From an uncultured virus (IMG/VR IMGVR_UViG_2061766007_000327) (lineage: Duplodnaviria; Heunggongvirae; Uroviricota; Caudoviricetes): a stretch of 64,000 nt of DNA. The notes below the pieces were generated by a model, which saw nothing but the letters and a program-made list of their open reading frames with translations, was not told where the DNA came from and searched no databases. The position numbers and the translations under genes are program-made. Where the stretch lies: the IMG/VR virus record IMGVR_UViG_2061766007_000327; one strand, written 5' to 3'. Position 1 is the stretch's first letter. Every line of letters begins with the position of its first letter. Below, in pieces: positions 3,587 through 62,407 of this stretch.

Positions 3587-4114
3587 ATGGAAAAAACCGA
3601 TCAGTTTTTTAAAGGGGCATACGACACGATTGTCGGCGCGCCTTGTACCGTCCGGGTTGGACGTAGACGCTATAAAGTAAGGCAGGTCGCACAGGCAGTC
3701 AAATTAAGGATCGCCCTGCTCGAGCAGGAAGCACAGGTCTTGGAAGCAAAGGGCAAAGAGGGAGTATCACAGAAAGAGGCCGAGAAGCTGACAAAGAAGT
3801 TATACTCCCTTCACGCGAAGAAAGCCGCATATTACCTTCTCGGTAACTGGGCGATCTTCTTCCCGTGGATATGGGCAATAAGATGGCGCATCCTCCAACT
3901 TCGCGGTAATGAGACGACCTTCAGGATCAACGAAGCAGGAGTCGTGAGTGCTGATCTGGGTTTTTTCAAGGCCAACTGGGATATCTCAAGGCAGGAACGC
4001 GAGCTTTATATGAGACCGGTTGGCGAAGTCGCCAAGCAGGCGCAAGAGCGGCTGGAAACAGTAATGAATATGTTGGAGACGGACGCTTTGGGGATAAAGG
4101 AGGAAAACAAGTAG
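3587..4114 (+). CDS. Tail assembly chaperone (gpG-like)
   Basis: Lies between the tail tube and tape measure genes and contains the slippery heptamer G GGT TTT at 3958-3964. Confidence 0.75.
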   Translation: MEKTDQFFKGAYDTIVGAPCTVRVGRRRYKVRQVAQAVKLRIALLEQEAQVLEAKGKEGVSQKEAEKLTKKLYSLHAKKAAYYLLGNWAIFFPWIWAIRWRILQLRGNETTFRINEAGVVSADLGFFKANWDISRQERELYMRPVGEVAKQAQERLETVMNMLETDALGIKEENK

Positions 4115-49291: not shown

Positions 49292-49770
49292 GAAGGTAAT
49301 GTAGTATAAGTGGTATGATCGCCCCGGGCGGTATCCGTTGCAAGCGGCCGTCGTGGAGAGATNNNNNNNNNNNNNNNNNNNNNNNNNNNNNNNNNNNNNN
49401 NNNNNNNNNNNNNNNNNNNNNNNNNNNNNNNNNNNNNNNNNNNNNNNNNNNNNNNNNNNNNNNNNNNNNNNNNNNNNNNNNNNNNNNNNNNNNNNNNNNN
49501 NNNNNNNNNNNNNNNNNNNNNNNNNNNNNNNNNNNNNNNNNNNNNNNNNNNNNNNNNNNNNNNNNNNNNNNNNNNNNNNNNNNNNNNNNNNNNNNNNNNN
49601 NNNNNNNNNNNNNNNNNNNNNNNNNNNNNNNNNNNNNNNNNNNNNNNNNNNNNNNNNNNNNNNNNNNNNNNNNNNNNNNNNNNNNNNNNNNNNNNNNNNN
49701 NNNNNNNNNNNNNNNNNNNNNNNNNNNNNNNNNNNNNNNNNNNNNNNNNNNNNNNNNNNNNNNNNNNNNC

Positions 49771-50949
49771 AGTGCCAAGGGGATCAAGGACTTGTGCATG
49801 AACAAGCTGAAGACGGACGAGAGGTGTCGCTTTGTGGCGGACCGGAGGTATGTCTGTTTCCGCAATGGGGTGTTCGATTGTGTGACCGGCAAGTTGCTGG
49901 GTTTCGACGTGCGTTACAAGACGGACATCATCTTGGATTTCGACTATAAGGATGGTGCGGTGAGTGCGTTGTGGGACAAGGTCTTGGCTCAGACTGTGCC
50001 GGATGTTAATATGCGTGAGACGTTCCATCAGTTCTGCGGTTGTTTTTTAGCGAAGAGGGAAGAATACAAGATCGAGTATATCTGTTTTGTCGTGGGCGAG
50101 GGGCAGAATGGCAAGAGTATCATCTGCAAGGCGGTTATCAACACTCTCGGGAGGGGTGTCGCGAGTGCGTACAGCCCCGAGCAGCTGTTCAAGAGCAGCC
50201 AGGCGGAGTACCATCTGGCCGATGTGAACGGGAAGATAGTGAATTACTGTGACGATGTGAGCAAGAAGGACTTCTCCGGAGGCGATTTCAAGCAGTTCGT
50301 GAGTGGCGGGGAGTTTACTGGCAGGCATCCTTACAGCAAGAGACCGACGAAGGTGAACAAGATCCCGCTTATGTTGTGTTGCGCCAATAATATTCCTCCG
50401 ACGACGGATGACACGGAGGGGTATTTCCGGCGTTTTTTGATTATACTGGCTCCGAATCACATTGACGAGCGGGACAAGGATGTCACTTTGGAGGCGAAGT
50501 TGCAGGCGGATGATGTGAAGGCGGCTATTTTCAACTGGATTTACGAGGGGTATAAGGCTTTTGTGGCGAACGGGGGCAAGATCGATGTGGCGTCGACCGT
50601 CAAGGACGTGATAGAGGAGATGCGCGCGACGAGCAACTCGCTGCGGAGGTGGTTGAGTGAGTACAATTACGGGAAGGTAGAGCCGGACGGGTCTGGCGAT
50701 CCTAGATGGAAGCCTCTGAAGGCTTGGTGCAAGGAGTACATAGAGTACTGCCAGGACTTCGGGGAGCAGCCGAAGAACAAGAATGCCGTCACGGAGATGT
50801 TCAAGAAGATGGGCTTGGCGAAGACGAGGAGGAGCGACGGTATGTGGTATTGCATGGGCGTTGTCGAGGAGCCGAAGCCTCGCAGGAAGGAGGAAAAGGA
50901 GGATGATATGCCGAATTTTGCTGAACCTTTGAATTATTTGCCGTTCTGA
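49771..50949 (+). CDS. D5/P4-family primase-helicase, SF3 helicase part (5' part lost in the assembly gap)
   Basis: 'FRNGV.D..TG', Walker A 'GEGQNGKS', 'CCANNIP..DD.T.G..RR'. Confidence 0.9.
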   Translation, partial: SAKGIKDLCMNKLKTDERCRFVADRRYVCFRNGVFDCVTGKLLGFDVRYKTDIILDFDYKDGAVSALWDKVLAQTVPDVNMRETFHQFCGCFLAKREEYKIEYICFVVGEGQNGKSIICKAVINTLGRGVASAYSPEQLFKSSQAEYHLADVNGKIVNYCDDVSKKDFSGGDFKQFVSGGEFTGRHPYSKRPTKVNKIPLMLCCANNIPPTTDDTEGYFRRFLIILAPNHIDERDKDVTLEAKLQADDVKAAIFNWIYEGYKAFVANGGKIDVASTVKDVIEEMRATSNSLRRWLSEYNYGKVEPDGSGDPRWKPLKAWCKEYIEYCQDFGEQPKNKNAVTEMFKKMGLAKTRRSDGMWYCMGVVEEPKPRRKEEKEDDMPNFAEPLNYLPF

Positions 50950-53130: not shown

Positions 53131-53703
53131 ATGGGGAAAGAAATTTGGAAACCGGTGGTCGGTTATGAGGGGCTATATGATGTAAGCAGCCTTGGACGAG
53201 TAAGAAGTTTAGGGAGAGTGATCGTGCAAAAAAACGGGAAAAGAATTAAGATTAGAGAGCGAATTCTTAAGCCGGCTATTCAGAATAGGGGTTATGAGTT
53301 CGTGTCTTTATCAAATTCTTTAGGGCAAAAATTAAAGCTTGTCCACCAGCTTGTAGGCAAGGCATTTATACCAAACCCGGATAATAAACCGTTTATAGAT
53401 CATATCAATGGCAACAGGAGGGACAACCGAGTTGAGAATTTGAGGTGGTGCACGCCTAAAGAGAACAATAACTTTGAGCTCGCGAGAAAGCACGCTTCGG
53501 ATGGTCTCCTAGGGAAAACCGGTTGGTTGTGCCCTAATTCTAAAAAGGTCAATCAATATACATTGGACGGTACTTTTATTAGAAGTTACTATGGCACTCG
53601 TGAGGCAAGTAGGGAAACTGGTATAAGAAATATATCACGAGCGTGCCTAAGCCCAACTAGGACAGCTGGCGGCTATATATGGAAATATGATAATATTAAG
53701 TAA
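53131..53703 (+). CDS. NUMOD4-HNH-NUMOD1 homing endonuclease
   Basis: 'EIWKPVVGYEGLYDVSSLGRVRS', 'IDHINGNRRDNRVENLRW', 'VNQYTLDG...AGGYIW'. Confidence 0.92.
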   Translation: MGKEIWKPVVGYEGLYDVSSLGRVRSLGRVIVQKNGKRIKIRERILKPAIQNRGYEFVSLSNSLGQKLKLVHQLVGKAFIPNPDNKPFIDHINGNRRDNRVENLRWCTPKENNNFELARKHASDGLLGKTGWLCPNSKKVNQYTLDGTFIRSYYGTREASRETGIRNISRACLSPTRTAGGYIWKYDNIK

Positions 53704-55558: not shown

Positions 55559-57167
55559 ATGAGTTCATCTCCGCTTAACCGGAAGACAGCGCCGCAGATC
55601 CTGCGGCTCTGTGCGTTATGCCTTAAAAATGGGGTGCTGGACGCCTATGAGATGGGCGATGATTATGCCGTTGAGGAATTCCTCCGTAAACATAAAGAGG
55701 GCTGGACATACGGTGTTCTAGGCGAGCCGGACGACTACGACTGGAAAATGTGGAGATTTTCTCTTTATAAATGGTGTAGAAGGAATGCTCTTTCTCAGTT
55801 TGCGGACAATTATCTGTACGAGGTAAAACGATATAACTATCTCTATTGCCCGATTCTGCTAAGCATGAGGTTCTATTTGATGGGGATTGAGGAATGGCTA
55901 TCTTATCCCAATCCCAGCGGAATAGAAATCTATCGGCAGAACACTAACCTGCACTGGTGGAAAAACGGGTCGGGGAGCAGAAAGATCACGAAGCGAGAGC
56001 TCATCATAGAAGCGCAGGGGATGGCTTATGAATACCGCAGGGTCCCCGAGGGGAAACGGGTCATCTCGTATTCCGTGCTGGATGAGTTCTGCTCGGCAAT
56101 ACACGATCTAACAAGCAAATATATCTATAAAAAAAGAATAATCATTGATGGAAAAGCAGTCCAAAACCTATAAAGTTCAACACTTGGAGCCTTCTACTCC
56201 TTGGTTGGGTTTTATCTTACTTCCATATGGGGAGTTTTACAGACCGACTAAGGATTTATTGAAGGCGAAGCCTGGCGATATCCTACGTTTTTTTCAGGGC
56301 TCGGATTATACCATAGAACGGGTAATGAAAATCCCGCAGGATAGCGTCTGCGATATGCTCTGCCGTATCGCATATGGTATACCGTGGGCGGTAGCACTTA
56401 AGAAATGGCAGTCGTACGCCATGCTCGAGGGGAATGACAGAAACGTTATTAGTTCAGATTATTGTTTGTGGGTAATATATGACACCAATCAACATTGACG
56501 CAAAATTCTCCGACAGAATTCTTATTCCCGGAGAGGCTATCCCGCCGGGTTGCCTTAGTGGAGTCTGTTTGAAAACGTCTGACGATGTAATTTGTCTGGC
56601 ATATTTTTTGTCCACTTGGGACAACGGCCAGCGTCGCTATTATGACGAGCTTGACCGCCTCTGCCATCGTCAATGGAACTGCAGTTTTGATCTGATAGAG
56701 ACGATGTGGCAGGGTAGGTTGGGACAAGTAGGCGACATCTGGCATTATATGGAACTTAAAAGGGTATAAAGATGAAGACAGAAGATTTGTTCAAGTATGG
56801 CGTGACCCCGAAGGAGGGCAAACGCAAGGGGGAACGGTTTAGGGTTCTCCAGATTTATCCCGACAGGCTGATTGTGACTGACTGGGAAACGGAGGAAAAG
56901 AATGAGATATTCTATCCCGGGACTTATGATTTGTGGCGCCCGGCGAAGACTCTTTTCGAGGATGACTCCATCAAGCCGACCTGGGGAAATCTCAAAAAGG
57001 CTGTCGAGGCTAATGGTTTGTCGGACGACACTTTGATTGTGACCGATCCTACGACATACGACATCTTCAGCCTCCTATCTCCGCGCTATAGGCTCGGGGC
57101 TAGAGCTCGCGTCGTGAAGCACACGAAGGACAACGGCGAGGAAGAGCCTGCTATAATGATTTATTGA
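55559..57167 (+). other. Four hypothetical genes (about 55559-56173, 56145-56498, 56479-56769, 56772-57167)
   Basis: Overlapping plus-strand ORFs with no recognisable motifs. Confidence 0.6.
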
Positions 57168-57321
57168 TGAACACTGCTATTGCTTTCCATTTGCTTGAAA
57201 AGGGAGAGGCGTGCTGCTTGTACGCCTCTATCCTTATTATGCGTGTAGGGGATCGGTGTTATATTTCTTTTGACGGGGAGAACTGGGAGGAGACCGACAG
57301 TGAGCTGATTAAGGAACAGAT

Positions 57322-57387
57322 ATGATTAAGCTCCGAGGATATCAGGAGGCTCTTATTGCAGAGGCTCGCCAAGCACTGGCAAATTAG
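57322..57387 (+). pseudogene. Stranded 5' remnant of the helicase gene (MIKLRGYQEALIAEARQALAN*)
   Basis: Similar to the helicase start at 58119 (MELRKYQQSLIEEARLAL) and includes the Q-motif LR.YQ. Confidence 0.8.
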
Positions 57388-57390
57388 ATA

Positions 57391-57520
57391 TTTGGTTTTT
57401 GAAAAATTCTTCTTATCTTTGCATAAACATTGTGTCGCAGACAATGAGTAGAAATATAACACCCAGAATGAGTAGTGCAGAGCTGCGACCTCTGTATGAA
57501 AGTTCTGGGATTGTTTTTTA
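57391..57520 (+). promoter_or_regulatory. Promoter plus structured kissing-loop leader of an HNH gene
   Basis: TTTG at 57391-57394 and TATCTTTG at 57414-57421. Loops GTCGCAG (57434-57440) and CTGCGAC (57483-57489) are complementary. Confidence 0.75.
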
Positions 57521-57525
57521 TAGAG

Positions 57526-58116
57526 ATGGAAGAAATTTGGAAGCCGATTGAAGGGTATGAAGGGAAGTATGAGATTAGTAATCTCGGCAGAGTAAACAGC
57601 CTAAATTACCTTGGGACTGGAAAGCCAAGAATAATGAAGCCATATAAGAACATTAGCAAGCATGGGAATGTTCCTTATCTTCAAGTAGACTTGTATAAGG
57701 ACGGTGTTGCGAGGTCTTTAAAAGTTCACTTTCTCGTTTGCCGGGCGTTTCATGGCTCGCGCCCTGCATCTATTAACGGCGACACTAATGTAGAGGCGAT
57801 GCACTTGAACGGTAATTCTCTCGATAATCGTGCCGAAAACCTTTCTTGGGGTAGGCACAGCGATAATGTCCGCGAGAAGACTTTTGTTGAAAAACAAGCC
57901 GCAGCACAAAGACGGAGGTGGGCTTCTGGAGAATATGAATATCAAAAGAAGGCCGTGGTTCAAATGTTGCCGAGTGGCGAGTTTGTTGCAAGGTATGCTT
58001 CTGCGTGGGATGCTCAACGAGTTACTGGTTGTAATCAAAGCGACATTTCTAAGCACTGTAGAGGAAAGAGGAAATGGCTAGTCGGTGGATTTCGATGGAA
58101 ATTCGAGAAGGAATAG
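57526..58116 (+). CDS. NUMOD4-HNH-NUMOD1 homing endonuclease
   Basis: 'EEIWKPIEGYEGKYEISNLGRV.S', 'MHLNGNSLDNRAENLSW', 'VGGFRWKF'. Confidence 0.9.
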   Translation: MEEIWKPIEGYEGKYEISNLGRVNSLNYLGTGKPRIMKPYKNISKHGNVPYLQVDLYKDGVARSLKVHFLVCRAFHGSRPASINGDTNVEAMHLNGNSLDNRAENLSWGRHSDNVREKTFVEKQAAAQRRRWASGEYEYQKKAVVQMLPSGEFVARYASAWDAQRVTGCNQSDISKHCRGKRKWLVGGFRWKFEKE

Positions 58117-58118
58117 TT

Positions 58119-59620
58119 ATGGAATTACGAAAATATCAGCAATCTTTAATTGAAGAAGCAAGGCTGGCCCTGTCGAGGCACAAGCACATCATAGTGCAGT
58201 CCCCGACAGGGTCAGGCTAACCGGCAAGGGCGTCCTTATCGGCTCGATGGCATCGATGAGCAAGTATCGTGTATTAATTCTGGCGCATAGCGAGGAAATC
58301 CTGGAGCAAGATGCAGGCCACGCTCGCAAATGGGGTATAGAAGTCGCAGAGGTCTTTGCGAAGACGCGCAAGATGCCAGAGACACGATGTGTAACAATGA
58401 TGGCGCAAACGCTTCGTCAAAGGCTGAAGAAGGTGGACTGGGCAGACTGGTTCTCTTCATTCGGGCTGATAATCTTAGACGAATGCCACAGGGCGGAATT
58501 CGACTTTGTCTTTGACAGCATCGACGACAAGGTCTTTGTTGTGGGGTTGTCTGCTTCCCCGGCGAGATATGGTCAGATGCGCCAATTAGGGCTGGATTAC
58601 GGGGCTGTTGTTATCGGTCCCCAGGTACAGGAGTTGATTGACGGCGGTTATCTCTGCCGCTGTAGGCTTTTCTCATTGGATGCACCCTCGCTGGAGGATG
58701 TGGAGTGGTCTTATGGCCGTGGTGACTACAATCTCAGCCAGATGGCCAGTAAATTCAAATCACGGGCTAGATATGTCGGAGCGGTCGAAAACTACCAACG
58801 AATCTGCCCGGGAGAGAAGACTCTGGTATTCTGTTGTTCCTCGGAGCAGACTATCGAACTGACAAAGGCTTTCTGCGACGCCGGTATTGACGCAAGATAC
58901 TGTCTGTCCGGCGATTTCGACGAAGATGAGGAGTACAGTGGCGATCGGAAAGGTGTCGTAGATGCCTTCGCGAGAGGAGATTTCCCCGTCCTCGTAAATT
59001 TCGGCTTATTTACGACGGGCATAGATATTCCGGACATCAAGGTCGTAATGCTTATGTTCTCCACGACATCGCTGGTGAAATACCTTCAGTGTCTCGGTAG
59101 AGCCTCGAGGATTGCGGACGGTAAGAATAATGAGTTCATCTGCCTCGATTTCGGGCGTAACTATGAGAGGTTGGGCAGATATGAGGATCGCCGGGAGTGG
59201 AGTGTCTGGCATAACACTTCTGCGGGTGGTGGCGTACCACCTACGAAGGAGTGCCCGCAGTGTGGGAGGCTTGTGCCAGTGTCGTGGACGGATTGTAAGT
59301 TTTGTGGATACCATTGGCCGACACAGCAGGAAACATACGTTGCGGAATTGCAGGAGGTGGTTGCCAGAGAGGATGACGAGACGATCGAGGGGTATGTCGC
59401 GAGGAAAAAACTGGAAGGGAAGAATAATAACTGGATCCTGGTTCAAGTCTGTATCAAGAATCCAGATAATCAGAAGGATGCTTTTATGCGGGCTATAGAA
59501 GTACTGAGAACAAAGCACGGGGCGAATATCAGCCCGAAATACTGGTATTTTTTTAAGAAGGAGATATTGAGCAAGGTTAAGGTTAAGAAAGAAGATAGCG
59601 ATTCTGTATTATGGAAATAG
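58119..59620 (+). CDS. SF2 DExH helicase with an 8-nt interruption in Walker A
   Basis: 58119-58217 encodes MELRKYQ...QSPTGSG followed by TAA. A different frame resumes with GGC AAG GGC at 58223. Downstream motifs: DECH, SASP, TGIDIP, QCLGRASR, and a CPQC/CKFC zinc finger. Confidence 0.85.
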
Positions 59621-59841: not shown

Positions 59842-60015
59842 ATGGGGTTAGCAGGACTCGCGACAAAAAAAGGCGTGATTGTTAAGCAGACGACTCTCCC
59901 GTGGGTAAACTGCATCCATACCAATGTTGGCGGAGGGTGGAAGACGATGGAGGTATTAATATTGGAGGTATATGCAGATAGGGAACTTACTCCCGCCGAG
60001 ACAGATCGGATTTAA
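59842..60015 (+). CDS. Stand-alone C5-MTase TRD-like module 1
   Basis: Hand translation: MGLAGLATKKGVIVKQTTLPWVNCIHTNVGGGWKTMEVLILEVYADRELTPAETDRI*. An alternative start at 59820 would be in frame if the A7 tract were A6. Confidence 0.55.
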   Translation: MGLAGLATKKGVIVKQTTLPWVNCIHTNVGGGWKTMEVLILEVYADRELTPAETDRI

Positions 60016-60145
60016 TAATCCTCAAGAAGGTAGGATTTATTCCTTGGACGATGTGGGACCGACAATTCGGAACGATAGCAGATATTGGATATTAGAGGTA
60101 TATGATGAAGATAGCGGCGTACAACATAAAGAAACAGCGGAATGA
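59972..60145 (+). CDS. Stand-alone C5-MTase TRD-like module 2
   Basis: MQIGNLLPPRQIGFNNPQEGRIYSLDDVGPTIRNDSRYWILEVYDEDSGVQHKETAE*. Confidence 0.7.
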   Translation: MQIGNLLPPRQIGFNNPQEGRIYSLDDVGPTIRNDSRYWILEVYDEDSGVQHKETAE

Positions 60146-60305
60146 ATACGGCCGCCAGATCCGCAAGGATTACGAGGCTCATAGGCTTCCTGGGGTTCGC
60201 CGTAAGGATATAAAGGAACTAGTGCCGATGTTTGATGGTGTTTGTCGGACGATAACGACGATAGTCGAGGATAATTTATTGTTAGAGGTGTATGAAGGTG
60301 ATTAG
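60102..60305 (+). CDS. Stand-alone C5-MTase TRD-like module 3
   Basis: '...FDGVCRTITTIVEDNLLLEVYEGD*'. Confidence 0.7.
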   Translation: MMKIAAYNIKKQRNEYGRQIRKDYEAHRLPGVRRKDIKELVPMFDGVCRTITTIVEDNLLLEVYEGD

Positions 60306-61440
60306 TTGTGCTCTTCGCGGTAGAGGGGGCGTGTCTGGGCGAAAGGACTCTTGGCATCTCCGGCTCGAATTAGGGGACGAGGATGTAAGCAATACGATAG
60401 ACACTGTTCAAAAAGACTATTTGATAATGGAGATTATAGCGATAAAGAACCCGCTGAAAGGCAAGACGGGGTATGGCTGGCATTTTGAGCAGAATGTGTA
60501 CGAAATTGACTCGCTGGTACGGTCTTTGAAGGCTGGGGAGGGTTCAGGGAATATACCGAAAATTATTGATATGGCAAAACATTACAGAATTAGGAAGCTC
60601 ACTCCGACGGAGTGCCTGCGATTGATGGGTGTGAGCGACGAAGACATCCAGAAGATGAAGGATGCAGGCATTAGTGACAGTCAGTTGTATAAGATGGCGG
60701 ACAACAGCATAGTTGTGCCCGTGCTTGAGGGCATCTTCCGCAATATGGGATTCACAGAGAAACCGCTACGCGTGTTCGAGGCGTTTGCGGGCTACGGCTC
60801 GCAGAGTATGGCTCTTCGGAACATCGGCGTCGATCACGAGGTGGTCGGTATCAGCGAGATCGACAAGTATGCGATTATGGGCTATAACGCCACGCACCCG
60901 GAAACGAAGAATTTCGGAGACATCAGCGAGATAGACTGGCAGGAAGTGCCGGATTTCAACCTGTTTACCTACAGCTTCCCTTGTACGGACATCTCGAATG
61001 CGGGCGCACAGGCTGGATTTGAAGAAGGGAGCGGCACTAGGAGCAGTCTTTTGTGGGAGTGCAAGAAGGCTATCGAGGAGAAGCATCCGAAATATCTGCT
61101 GATGGAGAACGTGAAGGCAATCACGAGCAAGAAGTTCCTACCCGGTATTTTAAGATGGCAGGAGTTCCTGTCGAAGCAGGGATATGTCAACTTCATCGAT
61201 GTGCTGAATGCGAAGGACTACGGGATTCCGCAGAATCGGGAGCGGTGTTTCTTGGTTTCTATCCTGGATGCTGCGTGGTATCAATTCCCCGAGCCAGTGG
61301 AACTGACGCTGAAATTGAAAGATATCCTAGAACCCACTGTCAGTGAGAAATATTATCTTGACCAAGCGAGGGTTGACAAATTTATAGCGGGACTGAGTGA
61401 TGAAAAACGAGCTGCACTTGAAGAAGGTCGTACCGATTAA
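60292..61440 (+). CDS. Circularly permuted DNA (cytosine-5) methyltransferase
   Basis: Domain order: two TRD-like segments, motif IX (RKLTPTECLRLMG), X (QLYKMADNSIVV), I (FEAFAGYG), IV (FPC), VI (MENV), VIII (PQNRER). Confidence 0.92.
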   Translation: MKVISCALRGRGGVSGRKDSWHLRLELGDEDVSNTIDTVQKDYLIMEIIAIKNPLKGKTGYGWHFEQNVYEIDSLVRSLKAGEGSGNIPKIIDMAKHYRIRKLTPTECLRLMGVSDEDIQKMKDAGISDSQLYKMADNSIVVPVLEGIFRNMGFTEKPLRVFEAFAGYGSQSMALRNIGVDHEVVGISEIDKYAIMGYNATHPETKNFGDISEIDWQEVPDFNLFTYSFPCTDISNAGAQAGFEEGSGTRSSLLWECKKAIEEKHPKYLLMENVKAITSKKFLPGILRWQEFLSKQGYVNFIDVLNAKDYGIPQNRERCFLVSILDAAWYQFPEPVELTLKLKDILEPTVSEKYYLDQARVDKFIAGLSDEKRAALEEGRTD

Positions 61441-61576
61441 CGCAACGCCAGACGGCTTTTGCCGGACTATAAAAGCACAGTATTACAAAAATGGATTCCG
61501 CAATTTCACATTTTTCGAAGACGGCGGTTTTGGCGCGACGGGAGTGCTTGAAATGTATGAAGAGGACGATAAATAA
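61400..61576 (+). CDS. Stand-alone TRD-like module 6
   Basis: MKNELHLKKVVPINATPDGFCRTIKAQYYKNGFRNFTFFEDGGFGATGVLEMYEEDDK*. Confidence 0.7.
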   Translation: MKNELHLKKVVPINATPDGFCRTIKAQYYKNGFRNFTFFEDGGFGATGVLEMYEEDDK

Positions 61577-61760
61577 TGAGACCCCGGTTGCGAAGATTTT
61601 TAATCTGGGTGATGGAAGGTTTGCGATGAATGCTCCGGACGGCGTTGCGTGTACACTAACTGGTGCCCATCACTTTGCTGGAAATATAACTCATCCTCGA
61701 CAGGGGTTTAGACAGATGGGAGTATTGGAGATTGAGGATACGCCGGAGGATTCCGAATAA
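61557..61760 (+). CDS. Stand-alone TRD-like module 7
   Basis: MKRTINNE...NAPDGVACTLTGAHHFAGNITHPRQGFRQMGVLEIEDTPEDSE*. Confidence 0.65.
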   Translation: MKRTINNETPVAKIFNLGDGRFAMNAPDGVACTLTGAHHFAGNITHPRQGFRQMGVLEIEDTPEDSE

Positions 61761-61790: not shown

Positions 61791-62009
61791 ATGATAATTA
61801 ATTTTACAGGCTCTCCTTACGACTACGCAAAGAGCCTTCCCAAAAAGGAACTGCGAGCTTTGATCCGCGAGTGTAAGAAGGCGCGAGAGCAGGATTACAA
61901 CGAGTGGACTGACCGTTGTAGAGTATGCTTTGAAAGGGTCGCATCGGGGGACGACGAGCAGGCTCGTTGGTGGAGTAACCACGCAGAATTTGTAAGACCC
62001 GGCGAATGA
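61791..62009 (+). CDS. Hypothetical protein
   Basis: 72 aa after a promoter box, overlapping the next gene by ATGA. Confidence 0.55.
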   Translation: MIINFTGSPYDYAKSLPKKELRALIRECKKAREQDYNEWTDRCRVCFERVASGDDEQARWWSNHAEFVRPGE

Positions 62010-62407
62010 TCATAGAGACCCCCGAGCCGCAGAGGAGGAGAACGCACCATTCAAACGAGGGTAGGATCCAGGCAGAGTGTTTTGCTTGGTTTTGGAATGA
62101 ATTTCCCCAATACAGGAAGCTATTGTTCCACGTTCCAAATGAAAACGACAGAGCCGACAGTAATCCCATCCAGGGTGCAATCAGAAAGAGTCTTGGGGTC
62201 GTCCCGGGTGTTTCCGACCTTATTTTGCTTGTTCCTCGCGGTTCCCACGGCGCGCTTCTTATCGAAATGAAGGACGAAAAGGGGACTCAGAAGCCTGCGC
62301 AAAAGGAATGGCAAACCATAGTGGAGGCCCAGGGATACAAGTACTGCTTGTGCCGTAGTTTGGCACAATTTAAAAATGTGATCTCTGACTATTTGAATCT
62401 CAAATAA
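62006..62407 (+). CDS. VRR-NUC domain nuclease (putative Holliday junction resolvase)
   Basis: 'E..IQ', 'FHVPNE', 'GV..GVSDL', 'IEMK...G.Q...QK.W'. Confidence 0.88.
   Translation: MIIETPEPQRRRTHHSNEGRIQAECFAWFWNEFPQYRKLLFHVPNENDRADSNPIQGAIRKSLGVVPGVSDLILLVPRGSHGALLIEMKDEKGTQKPAQKEWQTIVEAQGYKYCLCRSLAQFKNVISDYLNLK

Follow-up and report, generated by a model that had tools for sequence, protein, structure and literature searches.

An apparently mobile HNH endonuclease cassette at the 5' end of a phage helicase gene, with an 8-nucleotide coding gap that ribosomes may hop

The gene for a superfamily 2 (SF2) DNA helicase is interrupted within its Walker A motif in a stretch of DNA from an uncultured virus of the Caudoviricetes (IMG/VR record IMGVR_UViG_2061766007_000327); "the window", below, means that stretch at its full length of 64,000 nucleotides (nt). 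Comparison with related sequences leads us to propose, with moderate confidence, that a mobile cassette carrying an HNH endonuclease gene entered the helicase gene at codon 21, and that the 8-nt gap lying in Walker A acts as a recoding element over which the translating ribosome would hop. A first-pass annotation, made from the sequence alone, had listed a stranded helicase start, a promoter, a leader, an HNH gene, a second helicase start and the 8-nt gap, and all of them were found just where it had put them on reading the sequence and its listed open reading frames (ORFs) between 56800 and 60500. The elements of the locus are these:

57164-57325 (+): upstream gene of 53 amino acids, its stop overlapping the ATG of the stranded helicase start (ATGA)
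57322-57387 (+): native helicase start, stranded; 20 helicase codons, a junction codon and a stop
57391-57421 (+): promoter-like motif TTTG-N19-TAnnTTTG at the left cassette end, conserved in loci L029, L080, L139 and L140
57428-57446 (+): leader hairpin 1; 6 pairs, 1 of them compensatory
57462-57509 (+): leader hairpin 2; a two-part stem of 16 pairs, 5 with compensatory changes, then a T-run just before the HNH ATG
57526-58116 (+): HNH homing-endonuclease gene, I-HmuI-like (NUMOD4 and HNH_3)
58119-58217 (+): replacement 5' end of the helicase; 33 codons, the last of them the take-off codon (ORF, Pfam, alignment)
58161-58218 (+): 58-nt stem-loop, its 3' arm ending at the take-off codon; minimum free energy (MFE) -35.2 kcal/mol, z -6.2
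58215-58217 (+): take-off codon GGC; GGC in all eight gap alleles
58218-58225 (+): 8-nt coding gap (stop TAA, spacer CC, landing GGC), also present in contigs of runs X4, X5 and X6
58226-59620 (+): remainder of the SF2 helicase from the Walker A lysine onward, with ResIII, Helicase_C and zinc-ribbon (ORF, Pfam)

The helicase is encoded in two pieces. Its second start, MELRKYQQSLIEEARLALSRHKHIIVQSPTGSG (58119-58217), begins two bases past the HNH stop and ends in ...SPTGSG, with TAA as the next codon. Pfam matches this 33-residue piece to positions 2-35 of the ResIII model (21.5 bits, just below the 22.5 cut-off) and the following 457-residue piece to ResIII positions 53-164 and to Helicase_C (E 1.2e-10); the N-terminal ATPase core with Walker A that characterizes an SF2 helicase is present, divided between the two pieces, and so is the C-terminal domain. 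The helicase also matches the DNA helicases of PHROG 16 (E 1.4e-55). Skipping 58218-58225 yields ...IIVQSPTGSG-KGVLIGSMASM and restores the PTGSGKG Walker A of the relatives: the two ORFs are colinear, their joined reading agreeing with the PTGSGKGVLIGS of the 15 relatives that have no interruption. The window yielded no further copy of the helicase.

The interruption recurs. Viral contigs with this helicase body supplied 16 relatives, Walker A being uninterrupted in 15 and carrying an 8-nt interruption at the same place in the remaining one, L013. A degenerate search pattern (P-T-G-x-G, T-R-R, NN, G-K-G), which fixed GGN, T-R-R and the 2-nt spacer and allowed TAA, TAG, TGA or TGG after the take-off codon, matched 7 viral stretches (3 of them this helicase) and 56 metagenome stretches (8 of them this helicase). 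With duplicates collapsed, there are eight distinct gap alleles from independent assemblies; a search of the viral contigs with the length of the gap left variable returned only the same three contigs as before. Take-off codon, stop, spacer and landing codon read as follows:

Window: GGC TAA CC GGC
L029: GGC TAA CC GGC
L021: GGC TAA CC GGC
L013: GGC TAA AC GGC
L017: GGC TGA AC GGC
L062: GGC TGA AA GGC
L064: GGC TGA AC GGA
L073: GGC TAA TT GGC

In all eight the take-off codon ends in C (gap-free alleles have GGC, GGA or GGG at this place), and the codon after it is always a stop, TAA in five and TGA in three, never the permitted TGG. The landing codon matches the take-off codon in seven alleles and is GGA in L064, the search pattern having fixed GGN only; the two spacer bases are free to vary (CC three times, AC three times, AA, TT). 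The upstream ORF is 33 codons long in every gap allele.

Contigs from three other sequencing studies (X4, X5 and X6) span 58218-58225 without an indel, X4 doing so with a single 1803-nt contig over 56559-58341. The same 8-nt interruption in seven further distinct alleles, and in the contigs of other studies, puts it beyond chance or error. The sources are metagenome assemblies, and a sequencing or assembly artefact might be suspected on that account; that explanation is rejected by the eight distinct alleles, which vary in spacer and stop and come from separate assemblies, and by the contigs of the three further studies, and it keeps a negligible chance. A change of genetic code, with TAG or TGA recoded, was dropped because the two frames differ and because TAA is the stop in five alleles.

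Elsewhere in the window a scan for other sites with a codon, a stop, a short gap and the same codon again gave 34 rows and no convincing second micro-gap, the candidates standing as pattern matches without a homology check. Among these rows a strong upstream fold is confined to the pair at the helicase stop (58218; landing +8 or +14), at -35.2 kcal/mol as against -2.0 to -22.3 kcal/mol in the other 32. A second in-frame GGC lies 6 nt past the landing codon (58229-58231) in the window and in L029 only, the other gap alleles having GGG or GGT there; landing on it would lose the Walker A lysine.

Is the gapped gene still a working gene? Past the landing site, the five complete gap alleles have 463-474 open codons; in the three partial alleles the frame is open as far as the contig extends. 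L013 and L021, both gapped, are sisters in both of the trees described below (support 100/100 and 96/92), and their comparison gives a nonsynonymous rate (dN) of 0.038, a synonymous rate (dS) of 0.66 and a dN/dS of 0.057 for the gene body. Over codons 38-61, which include the seven codons from the landing site to the first ATG, dN is 0 and dS 0.59. Those seven codons specify KGVLIGS in all eight gap alleles, with 2-3 synonymous codon variants per position. A protein begun at that ATG (58247) would be without the Walker A lysine, and the frame offers no earlier ATG, GTG or TTG. Judged by these substitution patterns, the helicase is under purifying selection in the gap-bearing phages.

The stem-loop goes with the gap: it is present in all eight gap alleles and absent from all 16 gap-free ones. 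Gap alleles form 11-12 of 13 arm pairs (MFE -26.7 to -35.4 kcal/mol, z -4.0 to -6.2), compared with 2-9 pairs (MFE -8.5 to -23.7 kcal/mol, z +1.1 to -3.1) in the gap-free alleles. The helix that RNAalifold predicts from the eight gap alleles pairs the (R)LALS codons with the TGSG codons. L073 has made a compensatory swap from U-A to A-U at the price of an amino-acid change in the 5' arm. The codons of the arms are nearly frozen across the gap alleles (GCC, GGG and GGC in 8/8, CTG and TCA in 7/8); nearly all the degenerate codons beside the arms have 2-4 synonymous variants. The structure sits 5' of the take-off codon, outside the gap, and its participation in a hop is suggested by analogy with pairing on the exit side of the ribosome.

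How did the gene come by its new beginning? A 21-codon ORF at 57322-57387, MIKLRGYQEALIAEARQALAN followed by a stop, is 63-74% identical in amino acids to the helicase starts of L005, L001, L002 and L016, its helicase homology stopping at codon 20/21. The stop of the preceding 53-amino-acid gene overlaps the ATG of this ORF, an arrangement normal for a native, translationally coupled gene start, and homologs of the 53-amino-acid gene precede helicase genes in L014, L017 and L140: the stranded ORF occupies the position of the native helicase start. Starts of the MI.LR.YQ type fused to an intact Walker A, which the first-pass annotation expected of relatives lacking the HNH gene, exist in L001, L002, L005, L014 and L016. 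The comparison gives good support to the insertion of a cassette of about 840 bp (approximately 57388-58225) at helicase codon 21.

The same HNH lineage lies directly upstream of this helicase at three loci, the window, L029 and L080, which align over the promoter, the leader, the HNH gene, its stop and the 1-2 nt before the helicase ATG. L029 has a stranded start of its own, MELRPYQRTLIDEARLALSRH and then three foreign codons, preceded by an upstream gene other than the window's; its helicase homology breaks 1-2 codons later than that of the window. L080 has neither stranded start nor gap, and no other of the 16 gap-free alleles shares its Walker A, QGPTGMGKG. The stranded start in the native position, the same construction in L029 and the occurrence of the cassette on another helicase body in study X5 (see below) bear out the earlier proposal that the HNH unit replaced the 5' end of the helicase and brought its own promoter and N-terminus with it. 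Near-identical empty-site relatives of the window were looked for in the searched collections, and none was found. A DNA search of cultured phages gave only matches of 63-83 nt within HNH genes (16 records, none covering 80% of the query), and a scan of bacterial and archaeal genomes for the helicase gave 122 pattern matches and no relatives.

The switch in similarity between the window and its relatives falls at the landing codon. Ahead of the gap, window and L080 share 53 of 99 nt; beyond it they agree at 61 of 63 and next at 79 of 84 nt, identity dropping to 67-74% further on; the gap allele L017 shares 92 of 99 nt with the window before the gap and 49 of 63 after it. One X5 contig differs from the window at 2 positions in the 846 nt of 57405-58250 and then continues into a different helicase body, diverging about 25-35 nt past the landing codon; a second contig from X5 represents a gap-free allele and joins the window sequence at 58221. 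A homologous replacement region ending at or just after the landing codon is seen in each of these comparisons (the window with L080 and L017, and X5); the X4 contig diverges past 58341. L062 (with gap) and L004 (without) are 96-100% identical over 3 kb upstream and again from about +230 of the helicase, and unlike each other between the stop of the upstream gene and about +230, which makes them resemble an occupied and an empty site for the gap tract only. On a tree of gene bodies (without L073, which is short) the gap label needs 6 changes, no fewer than expected by shuffling (mean 6.2; 295 of 500 shuffles as low); on a tree of the first 50 codons it needs 4 (shuffled 6.9; 5 of 500 as low). 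The contrast between the trees and the tract comparisons together indicate that many helicase bodies have received the gap-bearing 5' segment, in tracts that end 0-130 nt past the gap. The cassette is, as far as such comparisons go, mobile or recombinogenic.

The product of 57526-58116 has the features of an HNH homing endonuclease: NUMOD4 (E 6.7e-12) and HNH_3 (E 5.2e-6) domains by Pfam, a match to PHROG 59 (E 1e-31), and nearly full-length similarity to I-HmuI chain 1u3e (E 6.9e-7; residues 5-176 against 3-154), in alignment with which its H...N...N motif reads mHlnGNslDNraeNL. I-HmuI, an HNH nicking endonuclease of Bacillus phage SPO1 (PDB 1u3e), shares both domains with it and differs in being encoded within an intron, the window's gene being free-standing. 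The relatives in the same position are 77% (L029) and 72% (L080) identical. BLASTP gave no alignment with the T4 60.1 and mobA pseudogene products, a weak test in that the T4 copy is fragmentary. A second free-standing HNH gene (NUMOD4, HNH_3, NUMOD1) lies at 53137-53694 on the plus strand and is 34% identical to the first; L013 has the C-terminal end of a gene similar to this second one, in the matching position upstream of the same neighbouring gene.

The motif TTTG-N19-TAtcTTTG at 57391-57421, of a form that we take to be the Bacteroidota promoter consensus, is one of two matches in 64 kb (0.61 expected; 14 of 100 shuffles reach 2); a scan for sigma-70 promoters found nothing near the cassette on the plus strand. 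Compared across five related loci, the leader folds into two hairpins with 22 predicted pairs, 6 of which show compensatory changes, and Rfam found no credible family in 57200-58400 (best E-values 1.9 and 2). The T-run behind hairpin 2, just before the HNH ATG, suggests that this element may attenuate HNH expression. Promoter and leader are also common to two further HNH genes of only 34-36% identity, one downstream of a gap-free helicase (L139, which equals L138) and the other upstream of one (L140). The L140 gene (34% identical; reverse strand, about 2440-2600 of the oriented locus) stands between a homolog of the 53-amino-acid gene and the gap-free helicase, and in front of it the ATGA overlap seems to survive, together with ATG ATT, the opening codons of a helicase-type start; the gene may be another insertion at a different point. 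Several unrelated contigs in runs X4 and X6 match the window over 57388-57424 alone (X6 reaching a summed depth of up to 333 at 57401), so that the promoter box seems to be repeated there in many other contexts.

The alternatives to a hop have to be set against this material. The gap might be a genuine inactivating or truncating frameshift, leaving a 33-amino-acid peptide and a protein begun at ATG 58247 and spread by endonuclease-driven conversion or by hitch-hiking. Homing can, after all, spread mildly harmful DNA, and the gap haplotype is younger than the bodies to which it is joined (dS 0.12-0.64 over the first 37 codons, saturated in most comparisons of bodies). Against inactivation stand the long open frames of all the gap alleles, the low dN/dS of the body, the amino-acid invariance of the KGVLIGS codons, the Walker A lysine that a protein from 58247 would lack with no second helicase in the window to make good the loss, a stop maintained across TAA and TGA, and a conserved stem-loop; we consider it unlikely. 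Less likely still, and in our estimation quite improbable, is a -1 (equivalently +2) ribosomal frameshift that would join the frames and add three residues to the P-loop. The downstream frame is indeed -1 relative to the upstream one, and the -1 frame is open for 24 codons before the point at which reading must resume; yet no slippery heptamer of the form X XXY YYZ is found at or before the stop, the inserted residues would vary among alleles (L-T-G, L-N-G, L-K-G or L-I-G) and would break a motif of invariant length in the 16 gap-free alleles, and the pair of GGC codons and the conserved stop would be left without a role. The GGC 8 nt onward is the sole cognate site for a tRNA (transfer RNA) leaving the first GGC; this, the missing heptamer and the variable insert point to a short programmed hop.

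Several observations weigh against the proposal of a hopped, mobile gap. L064 lands on GGA and has one extra mismatch in its stem. The constraints of the search pattern build in part of the signature, and gaps of other form would escape it. Recombination with gap-free alleles could import selected codons 3' of the gap. Covariation in the stem is thin (95.4% of cells paired, double changes at 2 pairs, a score reached by 17 of 500 shuffles), and 8 of the 15 pairs of the main helix are invariant, so that the main evidence for the stem is its contrast with gap-free alleles and the frozen synonymous sites; common descent of one haplotype could account for part of it. An RNA run, X20, has contigs only on parts of 56647-57717, none reaching the gap, and DNA carry-over is possible there. 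Further observations bear on the part of the proposal that concerns immunity. In the window, in L029 and in X4-X6 the endonuclease gene immediately precedes the gapped ORF; six of the eight gap alleles are without an HNH gene in their sequenced upstream region (at least 823 nt), a gapped contig of 57.6 kb that is 82% complete (L021) has no HNH homolog at E <= 0.001, and in L080 a member of the HNH lineage (72% identity) immediately precedes a helicase that has no gap. The first-pass annotation supposed that the enzyme targets the Walker A coding DNA of cassette-free alleles, and that the gap makes its bearer immune to the enzyme and should be correlated with it across relatives. That correlation is weak: the two-by-two table (2, 1, 6, 12) gives a Fisher p of 0.53, and one scored for any "altered site" (3, 0, 6, 12) gives p = 0.063, both biased by the search for gap alleles in a far larger collection than for gap-free ones and compiled without L008 and L009, for which there is no upstream sequence. 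All three loci with this HNH lineage do have an altered Walker A site, by the gap in two of them and by unique substitutions (GPTGMGKG) in L080. The replaced part of the recipient is its codons 22-37 or thereabouts and, by analogy with the MobA element of phage T4, that is where a cut would fall. The same analogy allows that the gap protects the site from the HNH enzyme, an idea that we doubt rather more than we credit.

Those same six alleles, and the contig that lacks any HNH gene, recommend a different way of accepting the hop: that it is real but throttles or regulates the helicase, most ribosomes stopping after 33 codons, with the HNH gene near by only because the region is prone to recombination. 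The variable content between the upstream genes and the helicase, and the presence of the promoter and leader module ahead of unrelated HNH genes elsewhere, are in keeping with this, and Manning & Atkins (10.1101/2022.08.31.505936) likewise doubt that immunity is the only function of the T4 bypass. The altered Walker A site at all three loci of the HNH lineage, the clustering of conversion-tract ends 0-130 nt past the gap and the movement of the haplotype onto many bodies tell against it. We regard regulation with an incidental HNH gene as rather unlikely, and as the strongest of these competitors.

The mechanism that we favor, a mobile cassette whose gap is hopped, would work as follows. A ribosome holding peptidyl-tRNA-Gly on GGC would meet the stop in its A site, where decoding would be slowed, and the 58-nt stem-loop behind it would re-form as the messenger RNA (mRNA) exits. 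The tRNA would un-pair, the mRNA slide by 8 nt and the tRNA re-pair on the second GGC; decoding would resume at the Walker A lysine codon (AAG or AAA), giving a full-length helicase with its motif as in the uninterrupted relatives. At take-off the whole 3' arm of the stem-loop would be inside the ribosome; forward sliding would expose it to the 5' arm, already out, so that refolding could favor forward movement. ARAGORN called no tRNA in the window or in seven loci, leaving no phage tRNA-Gly to invoke. Insertion would have left the native 5' end stranded upstream, and the gap cassette could outlive the enzyme or travel without it, as reported for MobA elements. The comparisons show the layout of the locus, its conservation, the company that the stem-loop keeps with the gap, purifying selection and recombination breakpoints at the gap; hopping by the ribosome and a part for the stem-loop in it are what we infer, and protection by the gap we infer more weakly. 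More tentatively, the whole may be an independently evolved, minimal counterpart of MobA/gene 60, in which the gap shields the cassette's own target, ribosomes cross it with no more than a stop, two matched GGC codons and a stem-loop on the exit side, and the gap module is spread in short conversion tracts and persists after its endonuclease is lost.

The resemblance to the T4 mobA/bypass unit, to which the first-pass annotation had drawn attention, can be followed in some detail. Bonocora et al. reportedly described, in 2011, a MobA element of phage T4 with the 50-nt translational bypass of gene 60. As Manning & Atkins describe it, the MobA element combines an HNH gene with a bypass cassette and with an N-terminal piece that the element itself encodes, in which a replacement homologous region contains the nick site; the insert ends at or just after the landing codon, and some genomes have lost the endonuclease and kept the bypass (10.1101/2022.08.31.505936). 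The window's locus is built in parallel: an HNH gene directly upstream of the gapped ORF, a new N-terminal piece with a replacement target region, a glycine take-off codon followed by a stop and a matched glycine landing codon (GGA TAG ... GGA in the T4 record, GGC TAA CC GGC here), an element ending at the landing codon, and bypass cassettes that also occur without endonuclease. The differences are as plain. The T4 gap is 50 nt long and contains the take-off hairpin; that of the window is 8 nt long, leaves no room for an internal Shine-Dalgarno sequence, and has its stem-loop 5' of the take-off codon, at which it ends. In T4 the target is topoisomerase II and its gene has been split into two working subunits, whereas in the window the Walker A region of an SF2 helicase is the target and the gene has been re-headed, with a 21-codon remnant. 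The window's promoter, unlike T4's, looks to be of Bacteroidota type.

To our knowledge, natural programmed bypassing is confined to a handful of cases, namely gene 60 of T4 with its relatives, yeast mitochondria and the proposal for Hau3, and a full-text literature search on bypassing turned up neither a helicase nor a natural 8-nt hop among the matches listed. The terminase gene of Streptomyces phage Hau3 has been proposed to undergo UUA-triggered bypass of 10-nt inserts (PMC10732093). In both cases a short insert breaks the frame of an essential phage gene, the A site holds a stop or slow codon, a landing codon is near by and RNA structure flanks the site. What triggers bypass in Hau3 is a rare sense codon that depends on the host's tRNA supply, and no link to an endonuclease is described; the window has a stop and an HNH cassette instead. 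"Stop-hops" between matched codons around a stop, in E. coli constructs, and a 29-nt hop in plaA of Prevotella loescheii are covered in a review (PMC5009743). Stop-hops resemble the proposed event in that the peptidyl-tRNA re-pairs at a matched, non-overlapping codon across a stop; they are, by that account, synthetic or low-level, and plaA was never followed up, in contrast to a gap site conserved in eight natural alleles with a dedicated stem-loop. The plaA case suggests that the ribosomes of Bacteroidota can hop. Refolding of mRNA at the exit has been proposed as a driver for gene 60 by Wills, Parsawar & Atkins (10.1101/2024.12.09.627546).

The neighborhood of the helicase has features of its own. 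A C-5 cytosine methyltransferase ORF (60292-61440) lies within 59842-61760 on the plus strand and matches its Pfam model in two stretches; the order of its motifs, those of C-terminal type preceding motif I, suggests permutation or fusion of the gene. On its two sides lie five short ORFs whose ends share a recurring motif resembling LEVY, LEMY or LEIE. Beyond the methyltransferase region comes a VRR-NUC domain nuclease gene (62006-62407, plus strand; E 7.9e-7). L004 (about 3720-3880) and L080 (about 2740-2880) have tRNA-like pieces immediately before the helicase or the HNH cassette, with a D-arm-like 5' part and a GGTTCGAGTCC T-arm; ARAGORN did not call them, and they could be tRNA genes that have decayed or been interrupted. 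At least one N occurs in the window, near 49760, seen in the context of a minus-strand site at 49786.

What would an 8-nt hop signify? With its single conserved stem-loop it would, if true, be the simplest natural model for the release and re-landing of a ribosome, and a test bed for the idea that refolding of mRNA at the ribosome exit drives forward movement. The partnership between homing endonuclease and bypass would have arisen more than once, and its repeated origin would support the notion of coding gaps as a way to alter a conserved target site with the protein left unchanged. Gene callers split such genes and label them truncated, and the phenomenon is for that reason probably under-counted in viromes. 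Should the locus prove to be the minimal counterpart of MobA/gene 60 suggested above, "micro coding gaps" would be a general and overlooked footprint of homing endonucleases in phage genes that have been annotated as truncated.

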